Assembly (NCBI GenBank): GCA_030681135.1
Contig: JAUXXF010000010.1
Coordinates: forward strand, 31,539-95,538
DNA length: 64,000 bases
Source of the DNA: Chlamydiales bacterium
GTDB lineage: Bacteria; Chlamydiota; Chlamydiia; Chlamydiales; SM23-39
Reading direction: 5' to 3'
The position numbers were made by a program, and so were the translations under genes. The notes below the pieces were generated by a model. The model had not been told where the DNA came from. It searched no databases and saw nothing but the letters and a program-made list of their open reading frames with translations. Positions within the stretch are counted from its first letter, which is position 1, and each line of letters starts with the position of its first letter. Shown here piece after piece: positions 3,050 through 55,676 of this stretch.

Positions 3050-3109
3050 AGACCTCTTTCGAATGTAAGGATTCGTCGATTTTAAGAACCTTCATTTCAA
3101 AAGAGGTCT
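3050..3109. repeat. mini copy of the family-1 palindromic element
   Basis: AGACCTCTTTcgaatgtAAGGATTCGTCGATTTTAAGAACC...AAAGAGGTCT. It has the same terminal inverted repeat and the same AAGGnTTCGTCGATTTT core as the full copies. Confidence 0.7.
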
Positions 3110-3131: not shown

Positions 3132-4958
3132 ATGTGGAAGTATCCAAAAATCTATGATGTCCTCGTTATAGGGGCAGGTCACGCCGGCTGCGAGGCAGCG
3201 CATGCTGCTGCCCGGATGGGCGCCAACACCCTCCTACTTACCATGAATCTCGATACGATCGGCAAAATGAGCTGCAATCCTTCAGTCGGAGGGACTGCAA
3301 AAGGCCATATTGTTAGGGAAATCGACGCTCTAGGTGGGCTCATGGGGAAAGTGGCCGATCGCAATAGCATTCAATTTCGAATGTTAAACGCCTCAAGAGG
3401 ACCTGCTGTCCGTTCTCCCCGCTCTCAGGCAGACAAGGCCGCCTACGCCCTCGACATGAAACGGAGGCTAGAACAGACCCCCAACCTCGAAATCCAACAA
3501 GGCACTTCTGAATCACTTCTCGTAGAAAATGGCCGAATCACTGGAGTCTCTACGCAAGAAGGGATCATCTATCAAGCAAAAACTGTCATCCTCTCATCTG
3601 GCACTTTTATGAGAGGCCTTTTACATATCGGTCAGACCAATTTCTCTGGAGGGCGTAGCGGCGATAAAGCAGCCAGCGGGCTATCTCCCAGCCTCGAGTC
3701 GCTTGGATTTGTGTTAGGCAGACTGAAAACAGGCACCCCGCCGCGAATCAATTCCAGAAGCATCGATTTTAGCCGTTGCGAAGAGCAGCCAGGAGATGAA
3801 GGCGTCGTCTTTTCTTACGATGATCCTGAAGAGCGAATGGCTCAAGTGTCTTGCTATATCACCTACACAACTCCCAAGACTCATGAGATCATTCGTAATA
3901 ACTTAGATCGCTCCCCCCTCTACGCAGGAACAATTACAGGCATCGGACCTCGCTATTGCCCCTCCATCGAAGATAAAGTCGTTCGATTTGCCGACAAAGA
4001 GCGTCATCAAATTTTTCTAGAACCAGAAGGGCTCACCACTCAAGAAGTCTATGTCAATGGGATCTCTTCCTCTCTTCCTTTTGATGTCCAATTAGAAATG
4101 ATCCACAGCGTCATCGGGCTCGAACAAGCAGAAGTCATGAGACCGGCTTACGCCATTGAATATGATTATGTAAAGAGCGACCAGATCTATCCAACTCTTG
4201 AAACCAAGCGCGTGGAAGGACTATTTTTGGCAGGACAAATCAATGGAACAACCGGTTATGAAGAGGCGGCTGCACAAGGACTGATAGCAGGAATTAATGC
4301 TGCTTGCAAAACGCTCGGCAAACCGCCTTTTTCTTTGAAGCGCAGCGACGGCTATATTGGCGTCATGATCGACGATCTCATCCGCTTTGAGCTATCGGAG
4401 CCTTACCGCATGTTCACAAGTCGAGCAGAACATCGCCTTTTACTCAGACAAGACAATGCTGATCTCCGTCTTCGGCCCATGGCCTATTCGCTAGGACTCA
4501 TTTCTGAAGAGCAATATCAAAGAACTTTATACAAACAGCAGATCCTCGACCAAGAAAGAGAGAGGCTATCCCGCGCGTTTAAAACCATCGAAGGGAGAGG
4601 CTCTTCTCTAGCGCAGCTCATCTGCAGGCCCGATTGGACCTACCAAAAAGCCCTCGAACAATTCCCTGATGTTGTCGCCGATTTTGGCTTAGATCTCAAC
4701 CAACAGATCGAACTACACCTTAAGTACGCAGGCTATATTCAAAGACAAACGAAAGAGGTAGAAAAGCTCTCTCACCTCGACCAGATCCGTATTCCTCCAG
4801 ATCTTTGCTATGCAACCGTCGTTGGGCTAAGGACAGAGGCTAAACAAAAATTACTTCGTTTTACCCCAGAAAACCTCGGCGCCGCTTCTCGCATTTCAGG
4901 AGTTTCCCCCGCTGACATCTCCATCTTAAGGATTGCTCTACAAAAGCGGCGCTCATGA
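3132..4958 (+). CDS. mnmG: tRNA uridine 5-carboxymethylaminomethyl modification enzyme MnmG (GidA)
   Basis: N-terminal FAD motif [14 protein letters not shown], the [11 protein letters not shown] motif, and full-length family resemblance (608 aa). Confidence 0.97.
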
Positions 4959-5665
4959 AACCAGTTCTTCATTGGTTGGAGCTCGATCATCTTTCCATCT
5001 TTGAGCAACTTCAGCTGGAAGAGGCTCTCGTTCGAACAGACGCGCGCAATGTATGTATCGTCAATCCTGGATCTGCCAGGGCCATTGTTATGGGCATCTC
5101 AGGAGAGCCTAAGCTGCTACTGAATACCGAATCTGTCTTTCGCGATGAAATCCCCGTGATCAAACGTTTTAGCGGAGGGGGCACCGTGATTGTCGACGAA
5201 AACACCCTATTTGTCTCTTTTATCTGCAATCATGACGCACTACCAATCACCCCTTATCCAGAGCCTCTGCTTCGCTGGACGTCAGAGCTCTACCAACAAA
5301 GCTGGCAAATCCCCTCTTTTGCCCTTCAAGAGCAAGATTATGCTATTGGGTCTCGCAAATGCGGCGGGAATGCCCAGTATATCCGCAAAGGTAAATGGGT
5401 CCATCACACCTCTTTCCTGTGGGATTACAAAGAGACGAATATGGACTATTTGCAGCTTCCTGCTAAACGGCCTAAATACCGCGCAGACCGGCCTCATTCA
5501 GAGTTCCTTTGTCGCCTAAAAGACGTTTCTCCCTCAAAAAAATTCTTAATTGATCAACTAAAAAATGAACTTGTAAAGCGGTTTTACATTGAAGATTTTT
5601 GTCTAAAAAATCTTTCCTTTCCACCCCACAGGCAAGCTACGCAGCAGATATCCATGAAAAGCTAG
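4955..5665 (+). CDS. lplA: lipoate-protein ligase / biotin-lipoate A/B ligase family protein
   Basis: [21 protein letters not shown] and [22 protein letters not shown] match the LplA/LipB catalytic core. It overlaps mnmG by 4 nt. I recall the same gidA-lplA adjacency in Chlamydia. Confidence 0.8.
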
Positions 5666-5741
5666 CAAAAAACAGAGAATCTGTTAAAATGTTGGGCATA
5701 CTAAGACCACAGAATTTACTCAGTAAAATTTTTAAGGTGAA

Positions 5742-7034
5742 ATGATGATCAGAGCGCTTCGCGGCAACTACCGTTGGTTTATAGCAAGTTTAATTTTTTT
5801 CATTACTCTAGTCAACTTCATCGACCGCTCGGCTATCTCTTTTGTGATCGGGCCTCTCAAAGAAGAGTATCACCTGACAGACACAGACTTTGGCTTGATT
5901 TTATCTGCCTTTGGAGCAGGATACATGCTGCTGACCGCGGTAGGCGGATGGCTAGTAGATAAGTGGGGAGTGCGCCTCATGTGGCCAGTTGCTGCAGTAG
6001 CCTGGTCTCTTTGCGTCGGCTGTCTTGGCTTTGCTTCAGGTTTTTGGGGATTTATGATGCTCCGCTTTTTGCTCGGAGTCTCCGAGGGACCTCATTTTCC
6101 TGCGATGACCAGCTCGATCAGTCATTGGCTGTCTCCTAAAGAACGGGCCAGAGCTCTCTCTTTGGGGCTCATTGCTATCCCCCTCTCTTCTGTGGTTGGA
6201 GCCCCTCTTACCTCGTACCTTGTCGCAGACTTTGGCTGGCGCACCATGTTTTTTATGATGAGCATTACAGGAATTTTATGGGCAGTCATTTGGTACATCT
6301 TTTTCACCGATTTCCCTAAAAACTCCCCTTATGTGACCGAAGAGGAGAAAAAAATCATTGCCACCCCTTCTGTTTTATCCTCGGAAAAGAAAAGCGCTCC
6401 TATCGATTGGCGCTTCCTCCTCACCCACCCCACTCTGATTGCCAATAACCTTGCCTATTTTGCCTTTGGCTACATGCTCTTTTTCTCCACTCTTTGGTTG
6501 CCTGGATATTTTCTAAGCCAGCACGGGCTAAATCTCAAAAGCGTAGGATGGTATTTGACGATTCCTTGGCTGGTAGGGGCCGCTTTCTTAAAACTTGGCG
6601 GGATCATTTCCGACTATCTCTATGTAAAAACAGGCAAGAGTCGCATCGCTAGATCCCACGTCATTTGGATCTCTCAATCATTAGCTGCTATTTTTTTCCT
6701 CTTGCTAAGCTTTACCGACACCTTAGGCCTATCTATTCTTTTCCTAAGCTTGGGGTTAGGATTCGGCCTTATGCCGCAACCTGCCTTTTTCAGCATCAAC
6801 ATCGACGTGGCCAAAGAAAGAGCAGGATCTGCCCAAGGGATCACTTCGAGCTGTCTTTCTCTTGCAGGAGTAATAGCTCCTGTGGTGACAGGATGGATTG
6901 TAGATGTGACCGGTAACTACCAGTGGGCGTTCTTGCTTCTTGCTGGAATGACCGCCCTTGCTGTAGTGACAGTGATCTTCTTCCATCATCCAGAACGGCA
7001 ATGGGAAAGAGCTCCTAAACCAGAAATTGCCTAA
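5742..7034 (+). CDS. MFS transporter (anion:cation symporter-like)
   Basis: About 12 hydrophobic segments. The motif WLVDKWGVR and the loop 2-3 region are typical of MFS/ACS-type permeases. Confidence 0.85.
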   Translation: MMIRALRGNYRWFIASLIFFITLVNFIDRSAISFVIGPLKEEYHLTDTDFGLILSAFGAGYMLLTAVGGWLVDKWGVRLMWPVAAVAWSLCVGCLGFASGFWGFMMLRFLLGVSEGPHFPAMTSSISHWLSPKERARALSLGLIAIPLSSVVGAPLTSYLVADFGWRTMFFMMSITGILWAVIWYIFFTDFPKNSPYVTEEEKKIIATPSVLSSEKKSAPIDWRFLLTHPTLIANNLAYFAFGYMLFFSTLWLPGYFLSQHGLNLKSVGWYLTIPWLVGAAFLKLGGIISDYLYVKTGKSRIARSHVIWISQSLAAIFFLLLSFTDTLGLSILFLSLGLGFGLMPQPAFFSINIDVAKERAGSAQGITSSCLSLAGVIAPVVTGWIVDVTGNYQWAFLLLAGMTALAVVTVIFFHHPERQWERAPKPEIA

Positions 7035-7037
7035 ATA

Positions 7038-7120
7038 GACCTCTTGCGTAGCTAAGGGGTCGTCGATTTTTGGGTTCTTTTGAGTCGAACTTCGTTAGCT
7101 TTTAGGGGGGGGGTAATAAT
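7038..7120. repeat. half copy (one arm) of the family-1 palindromic element
   Basis: AGACCTCTTgcgtagctAAGGGGTCGTCGATTTTTGGGTTCTTTTGAGTCGAACTTCGTTAGCTTTTAGGGGGGGGG. There is no matching second arm. It starts 3 nt after the MFS stop codon. Confidence 0.7.
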
Positions 7121-8971: not shown

Positions 8972-9016
8972 AGAGGGTGTCTAAGAAGCTGTACTAAAAC
9001 CTAGCTTCTTAGAGAG
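8972..9016. repeat. mini-derivative of the family-1 element
   Basis: AGAGGGTGTCTAAGAAGCTgtactaaaacctAGCTTCTTAGAGAG. It abuts the sdhB stop codon and shares its AGAGGGTGTCTAAGAA terminus with copy 20780-20951. Confidence 0.7.
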
Positions 9017-20140: not shown

Positions 20141-20779
20141 ATGAAAAAGCGCAACTGCCTCTTATTAGCAATTGGGTTTCTTTTAGGATGCTCTCCTCTC
20201 AAGACATCGCCTCACGATGAAAAACATCAGCTTGAACTGACGTTGCATGAAGTACAAACAAATCTTGATGATCTGCGCCACGATGTCAATTGCTTTCAAA
20301 CCGAAATGCAAATCTTAGATGGGCGGATTAAATATTATGAAAACACTCTAAGCTCTCTCAAAAATCAGGATCTGCAAAACACGCAAGGCAAAGTAGATCA
20401 GTTAGTCCATCAAATTCACTCCCTCGAAAAAAAACTCAATGCCTTTGAAAAGTCGCACCAGACAGAAGAAAAGAATCTTGAGCAGCTTGCAACGCATGCT
20501 AATGAGACGACAGTTGCTTTTACTCAATTTAAGTATCGACTTGTTGAAATAGAGCAAAGTCTGGCTAGTCTGAGCAAACTGAAAACAAACCTTGAGTCTT
20601 TAGCAAACAACTTACGTCCTTCTTCAGAATCATTCAAAATTTACAAGGTCTCTCCAGGAGATTCGTTAAAAAAAATCGCAACGCTTCATAAAACAAGCGT
20701 AGAGAAACTCAAAACCTACAACCATTTACATGAAGATTTGATTGTCGTAGGACAAGAGCTAAAAATCCCACTCGGCTAA
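20141..20779 (+). CDS. coiled-coil lipoprotein with a C-terminal LysM domain
   Basis: MKKRNCLLLAIGFLLGC lipobox at the ATG at 20141 (the track ORF starts at a TTG at 20126). A long heptad-rich middle region. LysM: YKVSPGDSLKKIATLHKTSVEKLKTYNHL...GQELKIP. Confidence 0.8.
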   Translation: MKKRNCLLLAIGFLLGCSPLKTSPHDEKHQLELTLHEVQTNLDDLRHDVNCFQTEMQILDGRIKYYENTLSSLKNQDLQNTQGKVDQLVHQIHSLEKKLNAFEKSHQTEEKNLEQLATHANETTVAFTQFKYRLVEIEQSLASLSKLKTNLESLANNLRPSSESFKIYKVSPGDSLKKIATLHKTSVEKLKTYNHLHEDLIVVGQELKIPLG

Positions 20780-20951
20780 GAGGGTGTCTAAGAATTAAGG
20801 CTTCGTCGATTTTCGGGATGATTTTGGCCTATTTTCGATTCTTTTTACAGGGGTAGTATACGAAGTTGATACAACCCCCCCTGTAAAAAGAATCGAAAAT
20901 AGGCTCAAAAGCACCCGAAAATCGACAGAAGCTTAATTTTTAGACACCCTC
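20780..20951. repeat. full-length family-1 palindromic element
   Basis: GAGGGTGTCTAAGAATTAAGGCTTCGTCGATTTTCGGG...CAGGGG-loop-CCCCCCTG...CCCGAAAATCGACAGAAGCTTAATTTTTAGACACCCTC. It starts at the base after the LysM gene stop. Confidence 0.9.
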
Positions 20952-21085
20952 TAAAACATGTCCATAACCCTAGATTATGGACAGATTCTAAACAATAGTA
21001 CGCCTCCCTTTAAAAATTGATTGAAAAAAACATCAAAACGTGAAATCATTCGCGGCGTTTAGAGATATTGTTAAAAGGACGACAC

Positions 21086-21793
21086 ATGAGTCAAAAGAAA
21101 CGAATTTTGTTAATAGAAGATGAAGAAGATATTGCAGCCCTTATCAAGCTGCAAGCAGAAATTTCTGGATATAAACTACATGTAGAAGTAGATGGGATCA
21201 ATGGGTATCGAGCGATCGAACGAGAAAAACCCGATCTCGTCATTTTAGATGTAATGCTCCCCGGAGAAAATGGTCTGGATGTATGCCGGAAAATGAAAGG
21301 CAATCCTGAATTAAAAAACATTCCCGTAGTGATTCTTTCTGCAAAGGGAGAAGAGCTCGACGTAGTCCTTGGGCTGGAACTCGGCGCTGATGACTATGTG
21401 GCCAAGCCTTTTTCGCCAAAAGTATTATTTTCTCGCATTAAAGCCATTTTACGCAGAGGGAAAGAACCCGAAAAAGTTTCCAAAGTGGCAAAATACGGAG
21501 AATTTACCTTGGATATTGATCGCTACATCCTCCGAAAAGGGGATAAGGTCATCCCTCTGACCTTATCGGAGTTTGGGATTTTGCGTCGAATGGTCACAAA
21601 CCGAGGAAAAGTACTCACTCGCAATCAATTACTCGATGATATCAATAATGACGATGCATTCATCGTCGATCGCAATATTGACGTCCACATAGCTTCTCTA
21701 CGAAAAAAGCTTGGACCTACCTTTGATTGGATCGAAACAGTGCGCGGCGTTGGATATCGCTTTAGAGAAGATCCGATCGCTCTCGAAAAATAA
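21086..21793 (+). CDS. OmpR/PhoB-family response regulator (receiver plus winged-helix), no adjacent kinase
   Basis: ILLIEDEEDI...DLVILDVMLPGENG receiver with the phospho-acceptor Asp present. C-terminal winged helix ...ETVRGVGYRF. The ATG at 21086 is preceded by AAGGA (the track start at 21068 is a TTG). Confidence 0.9.
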   Translation: MSQKKRILLIEDEEDIAALIKLQAEISGYKLHVEVDGINGYRAIEREKPDLVILDVMLPGENGLDVCRKMKGNPELKNIPVVILSAKGEELDVVLGLELGADDYVAKPFSPKVLFSRIKAILRRGKEPEKVSKVAKYGEFTLDIDRYILRKGDKVIPLTLSEFGILRRMVTNRGKVLTRNQLLDDINNDDAFIVDRNIDVHIASLRKKLGPTFDWIETVRGVGYRFREDPIALEK

Positions 21794-21797
21794 TTCA

Positions 21798-21964
21798 TAG
21801 AGGGGATTGTAACCCCCTTCGAGCATCAATTCGCTGATCGCTTTGCCAATTCCGATTTTTCGCAAATTTCCTAAGAACCAAAAGGTTATGTCAATTTGCG
21901 AAAAACCGAATCAGCTTTGCAATCAGCGAATTTGTGCCCCGAATCCAAGTTTGCCATCCCCTCT
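21798..21964. repeat. family-2 palindromic element (about 167 bp)
   Basis: AGAGGGGAT...ATTCGCTGATCGCTTTGCCAATTCCGATTTTTCGCAAAT-loop-ATTTGCGAAAAACCGAATCAGCTTTGCAATCAGCGAAT...ATCCCCTCT. Confidence 0.85.
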
Positions 21965-22359: not shown

Positions 22360-22361
22360 TT

Positions 22362-22534
22362 AGAGTCTGTCGTTGTATTGAGGCTTCGTCGATTTTGGGG
22401 ATTTTTTTGGCCGATTTTCGTTTCTTTTTTGGGGGATAGTATGCAGCCGTTGATACAATCCCCCAAAAAAGAAACGAAAATCGGTTCAAAAAAATCCCCA
22501 AAATCGACAGAAGCTCAATACAGCAACAGACTCT
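22362..22534. repeat. full-length family-1 palindromic element
   Basis: AGAGTCTGTCGTTGTATTGAGGCTTCGTCGATTTTGGGGA...GGGGG-loop-CCCCC...TCCCCAAAATCGACAGAAGCTCAATACAGCAACAGACTCT. Confidence 0.9.
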
Positions 22535-22598
22535 TATTGCTCAAAAAACCAAAAACCGGTACATCGTATATCGGCACACTTAAGCGTGTTTTACTTTT

Positions 22599-31172: not shown

Positions 31173-31711
31173 CCTTAAAAATTTTTGGCGGAGAATATAA
31201 AGGCCGCCTATTAAAATCGCCAAAAGGACAAAATACCCGGCCAACTCAGGGCATTATAAGACAAGCAGTCTTCAACATATGCCAGACGGAAATTGAAGGA
31301 GCTACCTTTCTCGATCTCTTTGCTGGAAGTGGAGGCATGGGACTCGAAGCGCTAAGCCGAGGGGCTGCATGTGCTACCTTTGTCGAAAAAGATCGACATG
31401 CCTTAGCTTGCATCCATGAAAACATCCATATTCTCAACGTCTCTACCAGAGCGAAAATCCTACCAATGGATGCTAGGAGCGCTATAGAAAAACTTCAAGA
31501 GCCTTTTGATATGATCTATATAGATCCGCCTTATGACTTTTCGGTCCAAGAAATTGTAGACAAGATCTTGGCAAAGGGGCTCCTCTCATCTCTTCTTTTT
31601 ATTGAAGAGAGAGAAAAAACGCATGAATCAATGATCCATCCTTCTTTGGAGTTATACGATAAAAGGCGCTACGGCATTGCTCTACTTTCCATTTTTCGCA
31701 AGAAAAGTTAG
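31169..31711 (+). CDS. rsmD: 16S rRNA (guanine966-N2)-methyltransferase RsmD
   Basis: FLDLFAGSGGMGLEALSRGA SAM motif and IYIDPPY. It overlaps the vWA gene by 4 nt. Confidence 0.9.
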   Translation: MTLKIFGGEYKGRLLKSPKGQNTRPTQGIIRQAVFNICQTEIEGATFLDLFAGSGGMGLEALSRGAACATFVEKDRHALACIHENIHILNVSTRAKILPMDARSAIEKLQEPFDMIYIDPPYDFSVQEIVDKILAKGLLSSLLFIEEREKTHESMIHPSLELYDKRRYGIALLSIFRKKS

Positions 31712-31714
31712 AAG

Positions 31715-31779
31715 AACATCAACGATAGAACGATAAAAATTTATCGTTACATCGTTCTATCGTTTTTATCGTTGATGTT
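31715..31779. terminator. nested palindrome between the convergent rsmD and MORN genes
   Basis: AACATCAACGATA...TATCGTTGATGTT form the outer stem. Inner hairpins include GAACGATAAAAATTTATCGTT. Confidence 0.45.
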
Positions 31780-31793
31780 TCTTTCAAAGACTG

Positions 31794-34406
31794 TTAACGA
31801 ACGAGCCGGCCCTCTTCGTATTCGCTAATCGTTACTTCTCCTGAAGCGTCATATTTATACTTTGTCCCATCTAACTGATCATAGACAAAGGTTTGCTGGA
31901 TATAAGGAGAGCCGTCTTCATAATACTTATTAAAGACTCCGTGACGCATTCCATCAACGTACTCTGCTTCAAAAAGAAGAATTTGATCCTGACTCCATGT
32001 TTGACTCAGCCCGTGGAGCTTATCAGCCTCATATTGGCAAGTAGCTGCTAATGTTCCATCTTCAAAAAAGGTTCTCTCTTCTCCTTGCCGTTTTCCATGG
32101 GCATAAGGAGTTTGCCGAAATATCTCGCCACTAGGAAAGTACTGTGTGAGTAGACCCTGCTCCTCTCCATTGACAAATTCCATAGAGGCAAGCAAAGAGC
32201 CTTCTGGCGAATACATTTTTTCTAAACCTTCTTTGATGCCTGAAACATAAGAAGTCTCCAACATTTTCACGCCGTGTTGATTATATTCAACAGCGAGCCC
32301 ATGCATCCGATCCTTTTCAAAATAAGCCCGCAATGCCTTCACTTTCTCGCCCTTTTCATTGGGAGGATAATACACTTCATGAAGACCCTGTTTTAGATTA
32401 TTATGATAATGGAAGACGATTTCGCGTAAATCAGGCAAGCGCTGGAAAAAACGTCCCTCCATTTTCCCTTCGCTATAAGAAGCCTCTTCTAATAAAACAC
32501 CTTGTTCATCGAAAAGTTGTTTGAGACCGTGCAATACACCATGGCTATAGCAAACAAGAGATTGCAGAGTTCCACTTTGATAATAACTCTTCTCTTCTCC
32601 ATGAAACTGCCCTTGTTCGTCATAATGGAGCAATTTGCTCATCCGATCGCCCTCTTGCTGAGAGCTCTCAGTCCGAGGATAGTACTCTATATGTTTACCT
32701 ATAGGCTTATCCATAGAGTAGTTTTGGACAAAATGAACCGCTCCGTCAGGATACCAGGCCTTAGATTCCCCATCTAATTGATCGTTTGTAAAATGCATGA
32801 CTCGAAGGAGCTGCCCTGTTTCATCATACCATTTATGTTCCCCAACCTTCTTCCCTTCGCTAAAGGCGAACTCCGTTTTGATTTGTTCCTTATTCCACCA
32901 AGTAGCGACTACCCCTTCAAAAAGACCTTTTTTATAAAATGCTTCTGCAATTAAGTCTCCTTGCTCATTCCATTCTCTATGCCAACCTTCTCTAAGGCCC
33001 CCCATAAACTCTGCACGAAATTTTATATGCCCATTTTCATACCATTCAGAATGGATTCCTTCTGGCTGATCCATTTCAAAGTAAGAGTCTATCTTGGCAG
33101 CTCCGTCAGCATACCATTCAGCGAACTGGCCATTTTTTACTCCATCAACAAAAAAACCTCTGCAAGCAAGAACCCCATTTTCATGCCACTGCTCATGAAT
33201 GCCATCTCGCTTGTTTTGTTTGTAATGGGTCAAAGTCTTGATTTGTCCACCTGGATAATACTCTTTTTGCTCTCCCTCATACTGGCCAGCTGCATACTGA
33301 TACTCAGCTTTTACAACTAGGTTCGGATACCACTCTCGAAAATTGCCTTCAAGCTGATCATCCTGAACGAAATACTCACGAATATACCGTCCTTCCTCAT
33401 CGAATTCCACAATAGGAGAAAGCAAAGAGCCGGTCTCGTCATATTCAGCAAGAAACGCAAGACCTCCTTCAGGATGATTACGCCAGTGTTTGCCTACAGC
33501 TTTTCCATGAACAAATTGTCCTTCTCCAAGAAGAGTTCCATCTTCTGCAAAAAACTGCTCCTTGCCCTCTTTTTTCCCTTCCCTGAAGAAGATCTTATGA
33601 GACTCTTTCCCATTTTTATAGTAAGCGATATGGGATCCTATCGGCTCTCCTAATCTAAAATCCATCATCTGAGAAACATTAAGATCTTCATCGTAAACAA
33701 TGACAGCAGGCGTTTTCCCATTTCCATGAAGATTTCCGTCTAAAAATTGTTTTTGCATTTTTAGGCGACCATTTGGATGCCACTCTGTCATAAGGCCGTG
33801 AATTTTTCCTTGTTTATAAGGAATAGAAAATACTTTTAATCCACTTTCAAGATATTGGACGACTTCTCCTTCTAATTTTCCCTTAACGTAAAAGCCTTCT
33901 TCAGAAATTTGACCATTTTCATAAAAGCTTTGAGCCGCCCCTTCTAATAAGCCATGATCAAAGGAAGCGAGAGCTCTCAGCTTGCCACTGGGAAACATGG
34001 TTCTCACTTCTCCATGCAATACCCCTTTGTCATACGTTGAGATCTGAATCATCTCCCCTTGCTGCGTCCAATCGACCCTAAATCCATGAGGAACTAATAA
34101 AGGCTCTTGCAGCTCAGCCTCAGCATCTGTTTTGGGGAGAGGTAAAAGATCGTATTCCGCCTGCAAAGCTCCATTTGGATAGAAATGGACCTGTTTAACA
34201 GGCTTTTCGCCTTCAACGCTCGGCTCATGATAAATCACCGTTTTTACAGATCCTTGGGGGTAAGATTCTAAGACCTCGATGCGCCAGTTAGGCTGCCTCG
34301 GCTTCAAATTCACCTGCAAAGGAGGTGGCTGGCCAATTCCATGGACTCCAATAGGAGATCCCAGAGCAAGAGTTCCCACGATGATCAAAAACAGAAATTT
34401 CCTCAC
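31794..34406 (-). CDS. secreted MORN-repeat-variant protein (870 aa)
   Basis: Signal peptide followed by about 30 copies of a 23-24-aa G-x-W/Y-x-x-Y/W-Y-x-N/D-G motif (e.g. GEQKEYYPGGQIKT, GIHSEWYENGHIKF). Confidence 0.85.
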   Translation of the reverse strand: MRKFLFLIIVGTLALGSPIGVHGIGQPPPLQVNLKPRQPNWRIEVLESYPQGSVKTVIYHEPSVEGEKPVKQVHFYPNGALQAEYDLLPLPKTDAEAELQEPLLVPHGFRVDWTQQGEMIQISTYDKGVLHGEVRTMFPSGKLRALASFDHGLLEGAAQSFYENGQISEEGFYVKGKLEGEVVQYLESGLKVFSIPYKQGKIHGLMTEWHPNGRLKMQKQFLDGNLHGNGKTPAVIVYDEDLNVSQMMDFRLGEPIGSHIAYYKNGKESHKIFFREGKKEGKEQFFAEDGTLLGEGQFVHGKAVGKHWRNHPEGGLAFLAEYDETGSLLSPIVEFDEEGRYIREYFVQDDQLEGNFREWYPNLVVKAEYQYAAGQYEGEQKEYYPGGQIKTLTHYKQNKRDGIHEQWHENGVLACRGFFVDGVKNGQFAEWYADGAAKIDSYFEMDQPEGIHSEWYENGHIKFRAEFMGGLREGWHREWNEQGDLIAEAFYKKGLFEGVVATWWNKEQIKTEFAFSEGKKVGEHKWYDETGQLLRVMHFTNDQLDGESKAWYPDGAVHFVQNYSMDKPIGKHIEYYPRTESSQQEGDRMSKLLHYDEQGQFHGEEKSYYQSGTLQSLVCYSHGVLHGLKQLFDEQGVLLEEASYSEGKMEGRFFQRLPDLREIVFHYHNNLKQGLHEVYYPPNEKGEKVKALRAYFEKDRMHGLAVEYNQHGVKMLETSYVSGIKEGLEKMYSPEGSLLASMEFVNGEEQGLLTQYFPSGEIFRQTPYAHGKRQGEERTFFEDGTLAATCQYEADKLHGLSQTWSQDQILLFEAEYVDGMRHGVFNKYYEDGSPYIQQTFVYDQLDGTKYKYDASGEVTISEYEEGRLVR

Positions 34407-42299: not shown

Positions 42300-42525
42300 C
42301 TCTAAAAACTATTATCACGTGAAACTCAGTAGCTTACGCGATGGGAAGAAAAAAAACAAAGAATAAATGCTAAATTCTGATCCTTATCAATATAGAAAGA
42401 TTGCTCCCAGAGCAGACTCAATTTGCAAATAAAATAAATAAAGTTTAAAAATAAAAAAGATGAATAACATTACAGTTTTTGAGCATATATCGATCTTTTG
42501 GTATATGTAATGTGGGAGTTTGCTT

Positions 42526-42975
42526 ATGAGAAAAAATAAATTTAGTGAAAAACTCAAAGAAGGAATATCTGTTCAAGAGCTGGAAGATTTTGCTCGCAAA
42601 TATTCTTCGGAGGTTTTTTCAGTTATCGCGCTCGTGATTGCAGCCATTTCTAGCATCTTCGATTTTTTTACAGGTCCCGGCTGGGCGATTCTTTTTATGA
42701 CAATAGGAGCTGTGTTGGGCATTTTCTTTCCCACGCCTGTAGATAAAGGGTTAAAGCAGCTCTATGAGTTTGTGTTTAAACAGGAAAAATCTACGCAGCT
42801 TATCCTCGGAGGCGTAAAAATTGTCATCGCCATATTTATCCCCTTTGTTCTTTTTGCGATCACAGGACTTTTAGCTGGAACCTCTTACCATTACTACACG
42901 AGAAGAGGCCAAACGGCCATGCACACAAAGCCTCACGAGCCCTTTCACGATAAAGGGGGAGAAGAGCACGATTAG
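42526..42975 (+). CDS. small membrane protein with paired hydrophobic lobes
   Basis: VFSVIALVIAAISSIFDFFTGPGWAILFMTIGAVLGIFF is a bilobed hydrophobic segment, and there is a second hydrophobic block. The ATG is at 42526 (the track start at 42520 is a TTG). Confidence 0.6.
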   Translation: MRKNKFSEKLKEGISVQELEDFARKYSSEVFSVIALVIAAISSIFDFFTGPGWAILFMTIGAVLGIFFPTPVDKGLKQLYEFVFKQEKSTQLILGGVKIVIAIFIPFVLFAITGLLAGTSYHYYTRRGQTAMHTKPHEPFHDKGGEEHD

Positions 42976-43022
42976 AGACTGTCCTAAAATCGATGAAGCC
43001 TAGGTTTTAGGGCAGCTTCTTA
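42974..43022. repeat. mini-derivative of the family-1 element between two convergent stop codons
   Basis: AGAGACTGTCCTAAAATCGATGAAGCCTAGGTTTTAGGGCAGCTTCTTAG. It contains the TCGATTTT core motif on the minus strand. Confidence 0.65.
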
Positions 43023-43697
43023 GAAAGTTACTAATTGGCTTTTAATGTATCCCATGAGGTCGATGTTTTTTTTCTTATAGAAGGCAAGAATGCTCTCTGA
43101 GCTATTTGCAAGTCCATCTTGCCACTCTAAGAAATCTTCACAGTCGTTCCATGCTGCCATTTCGCCAGGCCCATTTTTAAGCTGCTTTTGCAAGACAGCA
43201 ATCCTGAGCAAATTCTGAAAGTAGAGATGAGACTCTTCTTTCCCCATTTGCTCTTTTAGGCGGATCGATTTTTCCAAAGCTTCTTGATATAACCCTTTTT
43301 CAATGAGAAGAGTGATTTCAGCAAAACAGGCATGCTCGGGAGATTCTTTTCGCAAATAATGAATGGGTTTTTCCACGTATTTTTCCGCCTGAGCAAAAGA
43401 GAGCTCTCGAATGAGCGTCTGCGCAATATAAGGCTCATAATGGGAAAGAAATTTTGCTCCTTTATGCAAGCGCTCTGAGAGTTTTTCAAAACTTTGCACA
43501 TCTGCTGGACTCTCTTGCCATTTTGCCATGAGCGTCTTTACTTCTAGATAATCTCGGTAAGAAACTCTAGAACTTAGGACAGCGATTAACACAGCCCCAA
43601 GAAGACAGAAAAAACTAATCCCCCACAAGCACTCTCTACGGAAAATCAGCATTTTAGCTAACAACTTTTCAACAAACGATGGCTTATTTTCTTCCAT
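43020..43697 (-). CDS. membrane-anchored helical (TPR-like) protein
   Basis: One TM helix (WGISFFCLLGAVLIAVL) followed by a helical-repeat region. Confidence 0.6.
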   Translation of the reverse strand: MEENKPSFVEKLLAKMLIFRRECLWGISFFCLLGAVLIAVLSSRVSYRDYLEVKTLMAKWQESPADVQSFEKLSERLHKGAKFLSHYEPYIAQTLIRELSFAQAEKYVEKPIHYLRKESPEHACFAEITLLIEKGLYQEALEKSIRLKEQMGKEESHLYFQNLLRIAVLQKQLKNGPGEMAAWNDCEDFLEWQDGLANSSESILAFYKKKNIDLMGYIKSQLVTF

Positions 43698-43760: not shown

Positions 43761-45617
43761 TTATTCCAATCGCCTTTTCTTAAGCGGAGGACTTCTTGAT
43801 CCATCGAAAATTGATGAAGATTCTGATTTCTTGAGCATGACAGAATCAATCACTTGAATAGCATTCACCTGTTTTTCATCCTCAATCAAAAATTCAGCAG
43901 CTTCATAAATCGCTTCTTTTTCGTTTTCGGGAAGTTTGCCAAGTTCCTCTCTTGCAATTTCAAGCAAAGCTCTTATCAAACGCTCCCGTTTGCCAAATAC
44001 AATCTCTTCAAAAGAATATGTCCAAGAATTAGAAATATGAGATAATTTATGAAAGACTCTACGTCTCATCTCTTCTGAAAGCGCTTGATATTTTCCTCGA
44101 AGAACATCTTTGCTCTCTCCTCGATAAATCGCTTGGCAAAGCTGAGCAAAAAGCGTTGTACAAATATAACTATTACAAGCTTCGTGCTTAGGGCCAGTCA
44201 TCCACGTTATGTCCTCTCCCTCTCCATTTAGAATAGGCTCAACGGGTTCTTCATCTAAATCTTTATTAAAGAGACACAATAGCGGGTTGCCCTCGAGAGT
44301 TTTTTTCTCTAACTCAAGAGAGTAGAGAGACGAAGGTAAACTTGTCAGCTGATTGTGATGAAGGGAAAGAACCCTAAGATTGTTAAGCTTGTCAATAGAG
44401 CTTGAAATGTTAACAAGCTGATTATTATTAGCCACAAGCGAGTTCAGTGGCAAGTTGAAGATTTCTTCGGGGAATTCTTTAAGGTCATTATCTTCAACAT
44501 ACAATCTTTTCAGCTCACCAAGCTGACCCATTTCTTCTGGCAGCTCTGTCAGGTGATTACTTCCAAGATCTAGTTCTTTTAGAGAAGTAAGATTCCCAAT
44601 AGAATCAAGATCAGCCATTTCATTTTCAGATAAATCAAGAATTTTCAATCCAGAAAGTCCCGTGATAGCTGTAATATCTGTCAGTTGATTTTTGGCAAGA
44701 TTCAGTTCTCTTAAAGAAGAGAGGTCACTAAAACATTCGGGAAGAGTTGCAATCTCATTATCTTTAAGCTTCAAAATTCGTAAATTTCTGAGCTCTACAA
44801 TAGAATCGGGAAGCTCTATAAGAGTATTTTCCTTAAAAATTAATACTTCCAACTGAGAAAGGCTTATGATTGGATGAGGAAACTCTGAAAAGCAATTCCG
44901 GTTGAGAGAAAGATGTTTTAGCCGAGTCAAGCTGGAGATCCACTCAGGAAGCATTTCTAACTGATTATCATTCAAACAAAGCTCTTCTAACCCTGTAAAT
45001 AGTTTTATTTCTGGAGGAAGAATTGTTAGTCCCAAATCGGAAAGATCTATTCTCGTAATAGATTGGATCCTTTCTTGCCCTTGTGACGAATAGAAAATCG
45101 CACGAATTTGTTCAGCTGGTAAAGGGTTGATTCTATTTATTCTACTCCACACCTCTTCAAGAGCTTCATCAAAGAGCCTTTGCTCTTTTAGATAATAATG
45201 AGGGCTTAAAACGCTCAACTCTTTAGGGATCTGAGCTCCTCGGCTTCTCAGTTCAGAGGTCAAGGCAAGGAACCTTGAGAAATAGTCAGGCTCCTCATTT
45301 TCAGAAAGCTGAAGCTCTGCATGAGCTCGGAGCTGAGCATCGACCATTAAATGACGAAAACCAATAAGAGGCATCTTTTCAAACTCCGGCCCATAGATCT
45401 TGGGCAAATAATCGTCTGCTATATCCTTCCAAAGCTTTGATACAAGACGTATGCTTCTTCCCGTTGCCACCGCTTCTTTGCTCTCATGAGGATCGTTCGA
45501 TAAAAAAGATCCGACAGAATACTGCATGATTCTAAATAATGCAGGTTCTAAGCTGCTAAGCGCACCAATAAGATCAAATTTCGAAGGCTCAGAGGATTCT
45601 CTAACTGGACTTGTCAT
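43761..45617 (-). CDS. leucine-rich repeat protein with an F-box-like N-terminus and a C-terminal NLS
   Basis: About 12 LRRs of the form LxxLxxLxLxxNxLxxLPxxI. The N-terminal LSSLEPALFRIMQY...IRLVSKLWKDIADDYL resembles an F-box (..LPxEiLxxIxxxL...rlVcKrWrxLxxD). The C-terminus is SRSPPLKKRRLE. Confidence 0.8.
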   Translation of the reverse strand: MTSPVRESSEPSKFDLIGALSSLEPALFRIMQYSVGSFLSNDPHESKEAVATGRSIRLVSKLWKDIADDYLPKIYGPEFEKMPLIGFRHLMVDAQLRAHAELQLSENEEPDYFSRFLALTSELRSRGAQIPKELSVLSPHYYLKEQRLFDEALEEVWSRINRINPLPAEQIRAIFYSSQGQERIQSITRIDLSDLGLTILPPEIKLFTGLEELCLNDNQLEMLPEWISSLTRLKHLSLNRNCFSEFPHPIISLSQLEVLIFKENTLIELPDSIVELRNLRILKLKDNEIATLPECFSDLSSLRELNLAKNQLTDITAITGLSGLKILDLSENEMADLDSIGNLTSLKELDLGSNHLTELPEEMGQLGELKRLYVEDNDLKEFPEEIFNLPLNSLVANNNQLVNISSSIDKLNNLRVLSLHHNQLTSLPSSLYSLELEKKTLEGNPLLCLFNKDLDEEPVEPILNGEGEDITWMTGPKHEACNSYICTTLFAQLCQAIYRGESKDVLRGKYQALSEEMRRRVFHKLSHISNSWTYSFEEIVFGKRERLIRALLEIAREELGKLPENEKEAIYEAAEFLIEDEKQVNAIQVIDSVMLKKSESSSIFDGSRSPPLKKRRLE

Positions 45618-47829: not shown

Positions 47830-48852
47830 ATGCTTTTACATATGGAAGCTGCTGGCCTCATTTTAAGCGACTCTCTTCACTATCTGGATCATCTCGGGCC
47901 TTTTTGCGCTCTCAAAGGCTACCCGCTGATTATCTGCGAGCCCATGTTAGCCGAGCTAGCATCTACCTATTATCCAGATTTGCAAATGATCCACAAAAAA
48001 TGGCCAAATATAGAGCTTCCTACAACGATTATTTCCTGTCATCCGCGCCCCATCCTTCAATCTAGCTTCCCGTTAGCCACACTAAATACTTGTCTCTTAC
48101 CCCATGGAAATTCCGATAAAGGTTGGAAAAGCGCTGTCTTTGAACATTTATGCCATGAACAAACCGTGTTTGTCTACGGAACAAAAATGTTTGACGCGAT
48201 TCAAGAAAAAATAAAAGATCTGTCTCATCTACATATCGAGCAAGTTGGCAACTTCCGCCAATCCTATTTTGAGAAACATCAAACATTCTACCGAGAGCTG
48301 ACAAAAAAAAATATCCCAAGAGGTCAAACAACTTTTTTGTACGCTCCTACCTGGCAAGATCTTGAAGGCAACTGCTCTTTTTGGGAAGCTTTTCCTATTT
48401 TAGCTGAAACCCTTCCAGATAACTATACGCTAATCGTCAAACCTCATCCCAATACACTCACAGCTTTCGCCCCCCAAATCGAACAGATGATCGGCCGCTG
48501 GAAAGAAAAAACGAATATCTTTTGGCTCACCGATTTTCCTCCCATTTACGCTCTTTTGGACATATGCGATGGCTATATTGGAGATATGTCTTCTATCGGC
48601 TATGACTTCCTCAATCAATCCTGCCCCATGTACTTTCTTAATCACCAAAAACGGAGTAGATCCTCTGATCAGGGACTTTATCTCTACCGATGTGGCGTTG
48701 AAATCTTTCCCAAAGACTATAAGAATCTTTTCCTTCTCGATCAACAGACGAGACACCTAGACAAGAGCAGGTTTCAACAAATCCGAAAAGAAGTCTATGA
48801 ATATACATTTGGCAAGAGCGACTTATCGGGGCTCCGCCCCGGACCCCGTTAA
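47830..48852 (+). CDS. CDP-glycerol glycerophosphotransferase (TagB/TagF)-like protein
   Basis: FLYAPTWQD, LIVKPHPN, and LLDICDGYIGDMSSIGYDFL resemble the Glyphos_transf motifs. Confidence 0.5.
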   Translation: MLLHMEAAGLILSDSLHYLDHLGPFCALKGYPLIICEPMLAELASTYYPDLQMIHKKWPNIELPTTIISCHPRPILQSSFPLATLNTCLLPHGNSDKGWKSAVFEHLCHEQTVFVYGTKMFDAIQEKIKDLSHLHIEQVGNFRQSYFEKHQTFYRELTKKNIPRGQTTFLYAPTWQDLEGNCSFWEAFPILAETLPDNYTLIVKPHPNTLTAFAPQIEQMIGRWKEKTNIFWLTDFPPIYALLDICDGYIGDMSSIGYDFLNQSCPMYFLNHQKRSRSSDQGLYLYRCGVEIFPKDYKNLFLLDQQTRHLDKSRFQQIRKEVYEYTFGKSDLSGLRPGPR

Positions 48853-48990
48853 AGGACTGCGTCCTTTAAAATCCTATTTTTCTTCTTTCTGAGGCAAGGC
48901 CCTATGGGCTTTGCCCCAGAAAATAAACACGCGGTTTCCAAAGGGCGCCAGCTCTTTGGCGGGGTTTGGGGCAGAGCCCCAAAGAAAGAA
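48851..48990. repeat. GC-rich cluster of short hairpins / imperfect palindrome
   Basis: AAAGGACtgcGTCCTTT, GGCAAGGCCCtatGGGCTTTGCC, CCAAAGggcgccagCTCTTTGG, TTGGGGCagaGCCCCAA. The outer TTCTTTCT...AGAAAGAA are inverted. Confidence 0.7.
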
Positions 48991-50253: not shown

Positions 50254-50265
50254 TTCCCCCTTCTT

Positions 50266-50437
50266 AGAGCCTGTTCAAGATCTAAGACTTCGTCGATTTT
50301 CGGGATTATTTTGGCCAAATTTCGTTTCTTTTTCGGGGGGTCATATACTGGAATACGATATTACCCCCCGAAAAAGAAGCAAAATTTGGCTCAAAAGAAC
50401 CCGAAAATCGACAGAAGCTTAGATTTTAAACAGGCTC
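50266..50437. repeat. full-length family-1 palindromic element between tRNA-Ala and the rpoD stop codon
   Basis: AGAGCCTGTTCAAGATCTAAGACTTCGTCGATTTTCGGGA...CGGGGGG-loop-CCCCCCG...CCCGAAAATCGACAGAAGCTTAGATTTTAAACAGGCTC. It ends at the base before the rpoD stop. Confidence 0.9.
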
Positions 50438-52099
50438 CTATTCTCCTTCTAAAAGATCTAGAAATGCTTGAAGCTGTTTTGCCCGAGTTGGATGGCGCAT
50501 CTTACGGAGCGCTTTTGCTTCAATTTGACGCACTCGCTCGCGAGTCACTTTAAATCTGACTCCCACTTCTTCCAATGTTTTTGGTTTACCATCTAAAAGT
50601 CCAAAACGCTCAATTAAGACAGTTCTTTCCCGATCAGTCAATGTAGAAAGGACCTCGTTCATCTTATCTTTTAAAATCGCATAGCCGGTCGCTTCAGCAG
50701 GAGACTCTATCGCTGTGTCTTCTAAAAAGTCCCCAAATTGGCTCTCGCCACCGTCTCCCACTTCTGCTTGCAACGAGATCGGATGTTGGGCAATTTTATA
50801 AATCTCTCGAACACGCTCGGGAGTAAGACCTAATTCAGCAGCCAGCTCTTCAGGAGTTGGCTCTCTTCCTGTCTCCATCATTAATTTTTTAGCGCCGCGG
50901 AGCACTTTATTAATGGTTTCAATCATGTGAACAGGAATACGAATCGTCCGGGCCTGATCTGCAATAGCGCGGGTAACAGCCTGTCTAATCCACCAAGTGG
51001 CGTAGGTGGAAAATTTATATCCTCGGCGGTATTCAAATTTTTCAACCGCCTTCATGAGCCCCATATTTCCTTCCTGGATTAAATCCAAAAAGGAGAGGCC
51101 GCGGTTGGTATATTTCTTCGCAATCGAAATCACTAAGCGCAAATTCGATTCGACCATCTCTCTTTTTGCTTCTTGGCTTTTATCCATCCATCTTTGAAGC
51201 ATCCGGACGTCTTTTTTAAATTCGTCCAAAGATCTGCCAGCAGCCAATTCTCGCTTATAAAGCTTTCTTTTGGCGGCAGCTAATTTAGCAGCAGCAAACT
51301 TATTTTTTTCAGCCCGAGGGGTTAACTCCTGAATATCTTTTTCTAACAGTAAAAACCGATCATAGGCCGACAGGATGACTTCGCCAAAATCTTCAATAAT
51401 ATTATGTCTACAGCAAAATCTTCGTAAATACGCCTGAGCTCTGATCCGGCACTTTTCTGTCTCTTCTATTAAATGAGCTCTCTCTTCTCTTTTCAAATCA
51501 GGATTGCGTCCTCGGAAAAGCAAAGATTCTAACTGCTGATCCTCTTGTCTCATCAGCTCTGACAACCTAGGTAGCAAATTCATAAAATGAGCTTTGTCAG
51601 ACACTTCTTTTTCTGAAATGAGCTTGTCAAAACGGTCTTTACCAGAAATCAAATAGTAAGCAATCGAGATGGCTTCTCGGATGGAGTAGCGAAAGCGTAA
51701 AATAATTTTTTCAATCTGCATCTGAGCTTTTTCGATGCGCTTGGAGATCTCTACCTCTTCTTCCCTGGTCAGCAAGGGAACAGAGCCCATCTCTTTCAGA
51801 TACATGCGGACTGGGTCGTCTGAAGTCCCTTCGCTTCTTTTAGGGATTCCCTCCAGCTCTTTAGCTTCTTTTTTACGCTCTTTTTGCCGTTCAACCTCGG
51901 CTTGATTGAGCACCTGAATATCCATTCCGCTCAAATAGATCAGCACCTGATCGATTTGCTCAGGAGAATCAAAGGTCATCGGAAGGATTTCATTGATCTC
52001 TTCATAAGTAAGAAACCCCTGCTCTTTAGCAAGAGTCACAAGCTCTTCAATTTTTTGTTGATGCTGTGGATTGGTGGTAAAAGATGTTGTGCTGCTCAT
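50438..52099 (-). CDS. rpoD: primary RNA polymerase sigma factor (sigma-70 / chlamydial sigma-66)
   Basis: Regions 1.2-4.2 are present. [19 protein letters not shown] (region 2.4) and [28 protein letters not shown] (region 4.2). Confidence 0.97.
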
Positions 52100-52376
52100 G
52101 GTCTCCTAATTTCGAGAGGGAAAGGAATATACACAAATAATCTGAAGAATCGTCTTTAGTCTCCTAGGACTTACCCCAAAATCCGGGGAATATCCTTGCT
52201 AAAACCCCAATTCTTCAGGTTTTTTGTGTATAAAAAACAAAAAGTATTGTGAACTGAAGTCTCCTTTCTGTCAATATCATATAACCTTTATAATTAAATG
52301 CAACCTTCATGATTCAATTTTGAACAATTAACCTTTGCTGACAGCGCCTCACCAAGGAAAATATTTTTTTTATCGA

Positions 52377-52442
52377 CTTAGAAGCCAGGTTTTAGGACAG
52401 CTTCTTAGAGGGTGTTTACAAAGTAAGGGTTCGTTGATTTTC
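52377..52442. repeat. mini-derivative plus solo arm of the family-1 element next to the aroC stop
   Basis: CTTAGAAGCCAGGTTTTAGGACAGCTTCTTAGAGGGTGTTTACAAAGTAAGGGTTCGTTGATTTTC. Confidence 0.6.
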
Positions 52443-55538: not shown

Positions 55539-55676
55539 CTCCCCTCATACGCAAATTCGGTGATCGTAAAGCTGATTCGGCTTTTCGCTAATCGACATAA
55601 CCTCTTGGGCCTTAGTAGACTTGCAAAAAACCAGAACCCGGAAAGCAAGCGTGAATTTGCAGGGGTATAGAGGGGC
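55539..55676. repeat. family-2 palindromic element (degenerate copy)
   Basis: CTCCCCTCATACGCAAATTCGGTGATCGTAAAGCTGATTCGGCTTTTCGC... matches the reverse complement of the right arm of copy 21798-21964 (CAAATTCGCTGATTGCAAAGCTGATTCGGTTTTTCGC). Confidence 0.7.

Follow-up and report, generated by a model that had tools for sequence, protein, structure and literature searches.

The palindromic elements and their neighbours

Four full palindromes of 170-172 bp each, together with a half copy and a number of derivatives of the internal-deletion or mini type, are dispersed among the genes of the window, the term used here for the whole 64-kb stretch of DNA that was analysed. Copies and remnants together amount to nine per 64 kb and are listed in Table 1, with coordinates counted from the first GA to the last TC. 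An earlier note had proposed a family of 172-bp palindromes with four full and several truncated or mini copies, and every one of these was recovered. The core motif of the family, GTCGATTTTNGGGN{3,4}TTTTG, occurs 8 times in the window compared to 0 times in 100 shuffles. Coding capacity is absent from the element, and the ORFs that run across it are spurious read-throughs only. The window has a G+C content of 42.6%, and its whole sequence was found in one groundwater metagenome run.

Table 1. Full, partial and remnant copies of the palindromic element in the window
Feature	Position	Strand	Context and remarks
Internal-deletion derivative, 58 bp	3051..3108	+	Both GACCTCTT ends and the first TCGTCGATTTT motif retained
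Half copy, single arm, from GACCTCTT end to G-run	7038..7118	+	Directly 3' of MFS transporter stop codon
Composite remnant	8973..9008	.	12-nt end fragment (GAGGGTGTCTAA), then 24-bp mini copy (GAAGCTGT...CTAGCTTC)
Full-length copy, inverse orientation	9783..9952	-	Inside sdhCAB operon, in the sdhA/sdhB spacer
Full-length copy, the one originally flagged	20780..20951	+	Directly 3' of LysM-domain gene stop codon
Full-length copy	22363..22533	+	Flanked by TTA (22360-22362) and TTA (22534-22536)
Mini derivative, 45 bp, ends GAGACTGTCCTAAAA and GTTTTAGGGCAGCTTC	42975..43019	+	TTA on each side
Full-length copy	50267..50437	+	Between tRNA-Ala(GGC) and the convergent rpoD stop codon
Composite remnant	52381..52442	.	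24-bp mini copy 52381-52404 (TTA both sides), then 35-nt truncated left end 52408-52442; adjoins chorismate synthase stop codon

The full copies sit very close to the ends of their neighbours. The flagged copy is flanked by TAA at 20777-20779, which is itself the stop codon of the LysM-domain gene, and by TAA at 20952-20954. The copy at 9783 separates sdhA (9956-11842) from sdhB (9017-9778), lying 3 nt beyond the sdhA stop codon and 4 nt ahead of the sdhB ATG; of its TTA direct repeats, one occupies 9780-9782 and the other, at 9956-9958, is the minus-strand stop codon of sdhA. The copy at 50267, with TTA and CTA as flanks, takes up most of the gap between its tRNA gene and rpoD. In the mini derivative at 42975, the left duplication and the first G of the element provide the TAG with which one ORF (42520-42975) stops, and the right TTA serves as stop codon of another (43020-43697); the derivative fills exactly the gap between two convergent genes. 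Several copies had been thought to fill convergent gaps in this way. For protein-coding genes this holds for the mini copy alone and for no full copy, and the neighbours of the 9783 copy are co-directional, not convergent.

Anatomy of the element

The full copies fold into hairpins with arms of 74-80 nt, and the 20780 copy, folded as single-stranded DNA, reaches -71.4 kcal/mol compared to -15.7 +/- 3.1 kcal/mol for its shuffles (z = -17.9). The predicted hairpin is therefore real, but the loop of about 25 nt assigned to it holds a further apical stem of 4-7 bp and leaves a true loop of about 9-10 nt. Likewise, the picture of a near-perfect palindrome with a mirror arm needs to be qualified: the arms are 77-85% complementary, but they differ by conserved bulges (TTCGTCGA versus TTC[T/A]GTCGA and GGGATTATTTTGGCC versus GGGTTCTTTTGAGCC), which give the element an orientation. 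The ends read GA...TC, and in most copies 9-10 of the 10 terminal nucleotides are complementary between the two ends.

Alignment of the copies, which measure 170-178 bp, reveals three zones: the outer 18-22 nt, the core arms, and the inner stem with the apex. The outer zone is variable yet self-complementary and falls into the end subfamilies GAGnCTGT, GAGGGTGT, GAACCTAT/GT, GAGGnAGTTGCA and GACCTCTT. The core arms, TTCGTCGATTTTnGGGATTATTTTGGCCGATTTTCGA on the 5' side and TCGAAAATCGGCTCAAAAGAACCCnAAAATCGACAGAA on the 3' side, are almost invariant and carry fixed bulges, while the inner stem is variable and covarying and is closed by an apical hairpin of the form GGGG-TAATATAC...GATATTA-CCCC. 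Arms of the type TTCGTCGATTTT...GGCC and GGCTC...AAAATCGACAGAA, the fixed bulges and the apical hairpin characterize a core of about 125 nt that is asymmetric, strongly conserved and paired along almost its entire length. Compensatory changes were detected in 43 of the 71 predicted pairs in an alignment of 30 copies (A1). The invariance of the core is partly an ascertainment effect of the motif that was used in the genome scan described below; positions outside the search motif are conserved too.

The apex, and sometimes the arm asymmetries, are mutually flipped in the copies L016, L082, L097, L099 and L101, and the end subfamilies combine freely with the inner-stem types. Both observations point to recombination within and between copies, and segments between the arms can flip. 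Pairing of the arms would be kept at the DNA level, either by selection for hairpin formation, by templated correction of one arm by the other, or by both.

Target sites and insertion polymorphism

Of the 35 copies whose ends are GAG or GAA, 14 carry the same 3 nt on either side, compared to 4.9 expected by chance (p < 5e-5). The identical pairs are TAA/TAA in seven copies, TTA/TTA in six and TGA/TGA in one, and the cross pairs TAA/TTA and TTA/TAA do not occur in any of the 35, which identifies the flanks as direct repeats and not as an extension of the palindrome. In the subfamily with GACCTC ends, TA stands on either side of 7 of the 11 copies.

Empty sites were looked for, as the earlier note had suggested, in syntenic contigs about 90-95% identical to the window, which come from relatives in three other metagenomes (X4, X5 and X6), and three of the four full copies turned out to be absent there. 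The most precise case is the copy between sdhA and sdhB. In the relatives from X5 and X6, each represented by a 6.5-kb contig, sdhA directly adjoins sdhB with a single TTA; the joint runs from 9779 to 9956, skips 176 nt, contains no filler, and TTA fits both sides. At the 22363 copy the joint in X4 runs from 22364 to 22537 (172 nt skipped), and at the 50267 copy a 37-kb contig from X5 joins 50254 to 50439 (184 nt skipped). Of the three empty sites, the one at sdhA-sdhB is exact. Such insertion polymorphism among close relatives indicates recent transposition in an obligate intracellular group.

Ends shared with IS5-family insertion sequences

A search for inverted repeats spaced 0.6-2.6 kb apart uncovered an insertion sequence (IS) of 1260 bp with ends GAACCTGTTCAAAATCTC (L002:1115-2374), located in a chlamydial metagenome-assembled genome (MAG) that also carries the element. 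Its transposase, reconstructed by reading through two frame changes in L002:1161-1952, matches the NCBIfam model NF033580 with 248 bits over positions 1-258 of 258, and contains the domains PF01609 (DDE_Tnp_1, 1.1e-28) and PF13340 (DUF4096, 9.7e-21). NF033580 is annotated as IS5 family transposase. In metagenomes, at least 542 candidate relatives of this IS were confirmed and 80 were fetched. Most of them measure 850-880 bp (850-1260 bp for the IS set overall), they start with GAG or GAA, about 17 are flanked by TAA/TAA or TTA/TTA, and the inverted-repeat consensus of 58 of them is GAGCCTGTTCAAAATCTT.

The outer 18 nt of the element agree with these IS ends at 18 of 18 positions in one copy (L013), at 17 of 18 in another (L031) and at 17 of 18 at both ends of the 50267 copy. 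Ends of the other subfamilies agree at 14-15 of 18 positions, and random 18-mers starting with GA reach 13 of 18 at most. In addition, a loose-end consensus from X5 (agreement 0.72) corresponds to copies ending in GAACCTGTTTAAAATC, identical to the IS ends.

The element thus combines the size, terminal inverted repeats (TIRs), target-site duplications, dispersed copies, presence/absence polymorphism and ends in common with an autonomous IS by which a MITE is recognized. Very probably it is a MITE, that is, a non-coding, non-autonomous DNA transposon of about 172 bp with IS5-family ends that is mobilised in trans. The MITE half of the earlier "MITE/REP-like" designation is in this way supported by TIRs, duplications, empty sites, high copy number, frequent location at contig ends, IS5-type ends, deletion derivatives that retain both ends (those at 3051 and 42975) and a window devoid of transposase genes. 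The outer 17-20 bp on each side represent TIRs of IS5-family IS of the NCBIfam 'transpos_IS5_3' type, and in the proposed mechanism a transposase encoded elsewhere in the genome would bind these ends and excise or copy the element. Insertion would occur at T-N-A triplets, mostly TAA or TTA, with duplication of 3 bp, and an insertion exactly at a stop codon would keep both neighbouring genes intact. Which transposase acts we infer from sequence, the resemblance of the ends pointing to the IS5-type enzyme.

The assertion that the window contains no transposase was upheld: a Pfam screen of 51 window ORFs detected no transposase catalytic domain, and tblastn of an IS5-type transposase against the window gave no match, the cognate IS not being found within the 64 kb or on any contig available from the same genome. 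This absence implies movement in trans. A search for transposases beside half copies in other loci returned ordinary neighbours (LicD, M48 peptidase, hydrolase, methyltransferase, F-box/WD40). A parent IS with the whole 85-nt arm at each end was also sought, and two loci with arms 1.4-1.9 kb apart came into question; both proved to be secondary insertions into a copy, namely, in L044, a group II intron that sits at the apex of the element, is degenerate, starts with GTGCG and has RVT_1 and GIIM domains, and, in the 5' arm of L074, an unrelated IS that contains a 520-aa ORF and is accompanied by an 8-bp duplication (GATTTTCG). No element copy was found by nhmmer on the 80 metagenome IS contigs.

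Several observations count against the MITE interpretation, among them the failure to find the cognate IS and the lack of element copies on the IS contigs in the searches just described. Three extra bases, TGT (9953-9955), lie between the end of the 9783 copy and its duplication. Of the 58 IS relatives, about 22 show flanks that are inverted instead of direct (CTTAGAG...CTCTAAG), and the IS-bearing chlamydial MAG carries element copies of another end subfamily (GACCTCTT), not GAACCTGT. Finally, the conserved core bears no relation to the IS interior and exceeds the ends in conservation, whereas MITEs usually show the opposite pattern.

The possibility that the copies are immobile, either in-place remnants of IS or prophage ends with deleted interiors or products of local duplication, could draw on the IS nature of the ends and on the existence of truncated and mini copies. 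It is nevertheless hardly credible. All copies contain the same 125-nt core, unrelated to the IS interior, and independent deletions would not yield one and the same product; in addition, half copies adjoin ordinary genes with no transposase remnants, empty sites are exact to the duplication, and copies are dispersed over many genomes.

The REP-like half of the designation found no support. REPs are described as palindromes that are imperfect, measure 20-40 bp and carry a conserved head, GTAG or CGTC (PMC3733652). A REP/BIME-like element moved as single-stranded DNA by a RAYT or an IS200/IS605-type TnpA that recognises the hairpin would agree with the fact that the entire element is a hairpin with covarying arms, and the conserved core starts with a CGTC tetranucleotide like that of the CGTC-tagged REPs described there. 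The 172-bp length exceeds the 20-40 bp given there, CGTC lies only inside the core and not at the tip, the ends match those of a DDE-type IS, and no Y1/HUH transposase was detected in the screened window ORFs. The element is moreover flanked by 3-bp direct duplications, and HUH single-strand transposases are not known to make these. This origin is accordingly regarded as extremely improbable.

Distribution and copy number

The core motif was used to scan one genome per prokaryotic species, which gave more than 117 loci among the matches listed. Paired plus- and minus-strand matches about 99 bp apart are confined to Chlamydiota MAGs, again among the matches listed, and the search of other Chlamydiae proposed in the earlier note thereby placed the family in many metagenome-assembled genomes of this phylum. 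The carriers are labelled Rhabdochlamydiaceae, Simkania, Parachlamydiaceae, Parachlamydiales or Chlamydiia, and some are labelled "Verrucomicrobia" or simply "bacterium"; the "Verrucomicrobia" label, we suspect, goes back to where GTDB places Chlamydiia. Single hits of the 17-base pattern in unrelated phyla are about as numerous as chance would predict, an estimated 140 or so being expected in 596 Gb when both strands are read, and were dismissed. Partial copies do occur on a few short contigs (L003, L024 and L034) assigned to bins of other phyla, and these may be mis-binned.

A covariance model (R1) built from the 30 aligned copies gave 186 strand-hits in 662 kb of scanned loci, and an nhmmer profile of the same alignment, run over the 117 loci and the window, marked 111 distinct places, of which 46 are full-length. 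When genomes are compared as DNA, the alignment is limited to the element itself, with about 80-85% identity, and does not extend into the flanks. At least six element loci belong to a single MAG chromosome of 2.2 Mb, numerous copies are located at the ends of contigs, and a search of the PLSDB plasmid collection for the element gave no match.

An elevated copy number, which the earlier note had made a test of its claim, is evident from the depth over the element relative to its flank, taken over summed contigs: 12-18x in the source sample, about 15-40x in X5 and X6, which are peat runs, and several hundred to about 2000x in X4, a soil run for which the value sums the copies of all organisms in the sample. 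The contigs compared with the window are assemblies, not reads.

Gene context and possible effects on expression

The neighbourhoods of 56 copies with called neighbours, based in the other loci on simple longest-ORF calls, comprise 34 tandem, 11 convergent and 11 divergent arrangements. Within the tandem group the element points the same way as the genes 19 times and the other way 15 times. This placement agrees with insertion better than with a signal designed by the host. In the window every full copy starts, as claimed, within 0-12 nt of a stop codon or tRNA end, but only 13 of 42 copies from other genomes abut a stop codon; even so, the expectation of 6.0 is exceeded (P about 4e-5). The enrichment can be attributed to the TAA/TGA/TTA target together with the survival of insertions that spare coding and promoter sequence. 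As TAA and TGA are stop codons and insertion there would spare the genes, surviving copies would pile up at gene ends, also inside operons.

An alternative holds that the element is a host-selected structured RNA at gene 3' ends, serving as terminator, mRNA-stabilising hairpin or RNase III site, with the core as its functional part. The very stable hairpin, the compensatory changes, the enrichment at stop codons and the conservation of core and bulges across chlamydial families despite non-alignable flanks would all be in line with such a function, as would the short element contigs seen at a depth of 2-4 in RNA-labelled runs with a Rhabdochlamydia copy, which are, however, too weak to call transcription. 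No RNA run matching the window copy was among those listed. Several features of the copies speak against it. Their orientation is random with respect to gene direction, and 11 of the 56 lie between divergent genes. A terminator scan detected no terminator-like site arising from the element hairpin, which lacks a T-tract and is followed directly by TAAAAC or TTATTG. Since the 9783 copy is located inside the sdhCAB operon, transcription of sdhB must pass through it. G-U-type mismatches are no commoner than A-C-type ones (91 versus 70, p = 0.11; 39 versus 31 when oriented to the upstream gene), so there is no sign of strand-specific RNA selection. Orthologous sites in close relatives have no copy. 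In an Rfam scan of the window the only match at gathering level was the tRNA, and the sub-threshold matches to the element were generic long hairpins, mainly miRNA precursors, far under their cut-offs.

Random orientation, divergent spacers, an intra-operon copy and the missing T-tract show that the element is not a dedicated terminator, and the 3'-end or terminator role once considered as its primary function is not sustained. A host-selected RNA thus appears improbable next to a MITE. A secondary, exapted effect of the MITE on mRNA is possible. At sdhB, the 9783 copy supplies the upstream region of the gene, including a Shine-Dalgarno-like sequence.

The conservation of the core calls for a separate explanation, as transposase binding at the tips does not account for it. 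The core may include a binding site, either a subterminal one or one for a host factor, it may affect neighbouring genes at the RNA level, or a successful master copy may simply have spread horizontally among chlamydiae in recent times. A bolder proposal, to which we give a small though not negligible chance, regards the core not as passive cargo but as a functional module on interchangeable IS5-type ends, acting as a platform for a chlamydial protein or as a processing or stability hairpin in polycistronic mRNA.

Novelty and significance

Literature searches for chlamydial MITEs or palindromic repeats found no description of such an element, and the literature found on transposable elements of Chlamydiota concerns transposase genes (PMC9723776). 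The element is ordinary in kind and has one unusual trait, the combination of a conserved core with interchangeable ends; in a MITE, the core is not usually better conserved than the ends that bind the transposase.

Nearly all knowledge of environmental chlamydiae comes from metagenome-assembled genomes, and a high-copy hairpin repeat of 172 bp breaks their assemblies, yields spurious ORFs and changes gene ends, so that annotation would benefit from a model of the family. The TAA/TTA preference, which amounts to targeting of stop codons, offers a straightforward mechanism by which elements come to "exactly fill" the gaps between genes. The insertion between sdhA and sdhB constitutes a natural experiment, in which a long hairpin and a new ribosome-binding region have been placed inside an essential operon. 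If the core were functional, the 3' ends of genes and the junctions within operons would have been rewired throughout the phylum as it spread, as at sdhA-sdhB.

Comparison with known systems

Rickettsia palindromic elements (RPE) are palindromic repeats spread across the genomes of obligate intracellular bacteria, where they typically lie in frame inside genes; we know of no transposase identified for them. The chlamydial element is likewise a palindromic repeat family of obligate intracellular bacteria, but its copies are mostly intergenic, are accompanied by duplications and have IS-type ends. With REP and BIME sequences it has in common that they are intergenic palindromes often found at gene 3' ends and in operons. 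It departs from the REP/RAYT system in the length, duplications and DDE-IS ends discussed above, and no RAYT was detected in the screened window ORFs.

Correia elements (CREE/NEMIS) of Neisseria measure 100-155 bp and have inverted repeats and short T-A-rich duplications. They lie next to genes, are co-transcribed with them and form long hairpins in the mRNA, and promoter, IHF-site and RNase III effects are known. Size and hairpin shape are similar in the chlamydial element, one copy of which lies inside an operon upstream of the next gene and would likewise be co-transcribed with its neighbours. In contrast, the two families have no common sequence, their hosts belong to different phyla, the duplication is TNA here and TA in Neisseria, and an autonomous partner can be proposed for the chlamydial element.

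The IS1031 group of the ISfinder family table has GAG ends and a 3-bp direct repeat. Like the IS5-derived MITEs of the IS1031/IS427 type, the chlamydial element is small and non-coding, its TIRs start with GA(G), it makes a 3-bp T-N-A duplication (2-bp TA in one subfamily), and its ends are the same, or almost the same, as those of an IS encoding a DUF4096 and DDE_Tnp_1 transposase. Unlike these MITEs, its interior is not a deleted IS but a separate palindromic core, which is conserved throughout the phylum and joined to several end subfamilies.

The sdhB start region

At the 9783-9952 copy, which lies in inverse orientation between sdhA and sdhB, the element end is separated from the sdhB start codon by 4 nt (window 9776-9790, minus strand; sdhB 9017-9778). 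The sole Shine-Dalgarno-like sequence upstream, AAGAGG, is located 7 nt before the sdhB ATG and is supplied by the element's own end, as the reverse complement of GACCTCTT. In insertion-free relatives, a single nucleotide separates the sdhA stop codon from the sdhB ATG (TAATATG). A GACCTC-type end was also found 2-6 nt before the start of several downstream genes at loci from other genomes (L092, L012).

Other palindromic and transposase-related sequences

The window carries a second palindromic element that is unrelated in sequence to the ~172-bp element and probably represents another MITE family with ends of the same type. It is missing from the syntenic contig of a related organism in the soil metagenome run X4, where position 21793 is joined to 21958 with a 19-nt filler. 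Additional long intergenic palindromes at 48826, 62714, 52128 and 31710 have different sequences, and hairpin repeats of 100-175 nt are abundant in the source genome. Other chlamydial loci also contain diverged palindromes ~170 nt long, whose apex carries a similar motif, GGGnTTGTAT...ATAC (L071:6541-6707 and L044:1715-1883).

Features of the window
Feature	Position	Size	Strand	Remarks
Second palindromic element	21801-21962	~162 bp		Ends GAGGGGATTG...CCATCCCCTC; flanks TA and TTA
Partial copy of second element	55552-55646
Intergenic palindrome	48826-48982	157 nt		G+C-rich
Intergenic palindrome	62714-62879	166 nt
Intergenic palindrome	52128-52234	107 nt		Related copy at 63937-63992
Intergenic palindrome	31710-31784	75 nt
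Repeat ORF	55786-59061	1091 aa	+
RING-finger protein gene	15659-16162			Eukaryote-like domain
MORN-repeat protein gene	31794-34406			Eukaryote-like domain
Leucine-rich-repeat protein gene	43761-45617			Eukaryote-like domain

Among the metagenome relatives of the matching IS5-family IS (L118-L197), 58 copies have definable ends. About 22 of these are bordered by inverted flanks, CTTAGAG...CTCTAAG or CTAAGAG...CTCTTAG, instead of direct 3-bp repeats, and about 17 by TAA/TAA or TTA/TTA.

The 1091-aa ORF is a tandem array with a unit of ~850 bp (repeat search, families D1-D5). Its domains, three HTH_21, HTH_Tnp_Tc3_2 and HTH_32, are exclusively of the transposase-type DNA-binding class, and the domain search revealed no catalytic domain. 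The array may have arisen from transposase N-termini that were domesticated or have decayed.

Two F-box + WD40 proteins (3742-4974 and 5571-6845) flank a disrupted element copy at L085, a locus from a MAG labelled Verrucomicrobiae.

Insertions into element copies

Element copies in other genomes have themselves been invaded. An unrelated IS of ~1.74 kb (L074:2529-4268), whose inverted repeats start with GGCCTGGTTCAAA, resides within the 5' arm of one copy and is bordered by an 8-bp duplication, GATTTTCG; no Pfam family matches the 520-aa ORF of this IS. Another copy contains a degenerate group II intron (L044:2709-3966) that starts with GTGCG and has RVT_1 and GIIM domains broken across several frames. 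The intron insertion point directly follows the element's apical hairpin with no offset, a position that recalls stem-loop-targeting introns.
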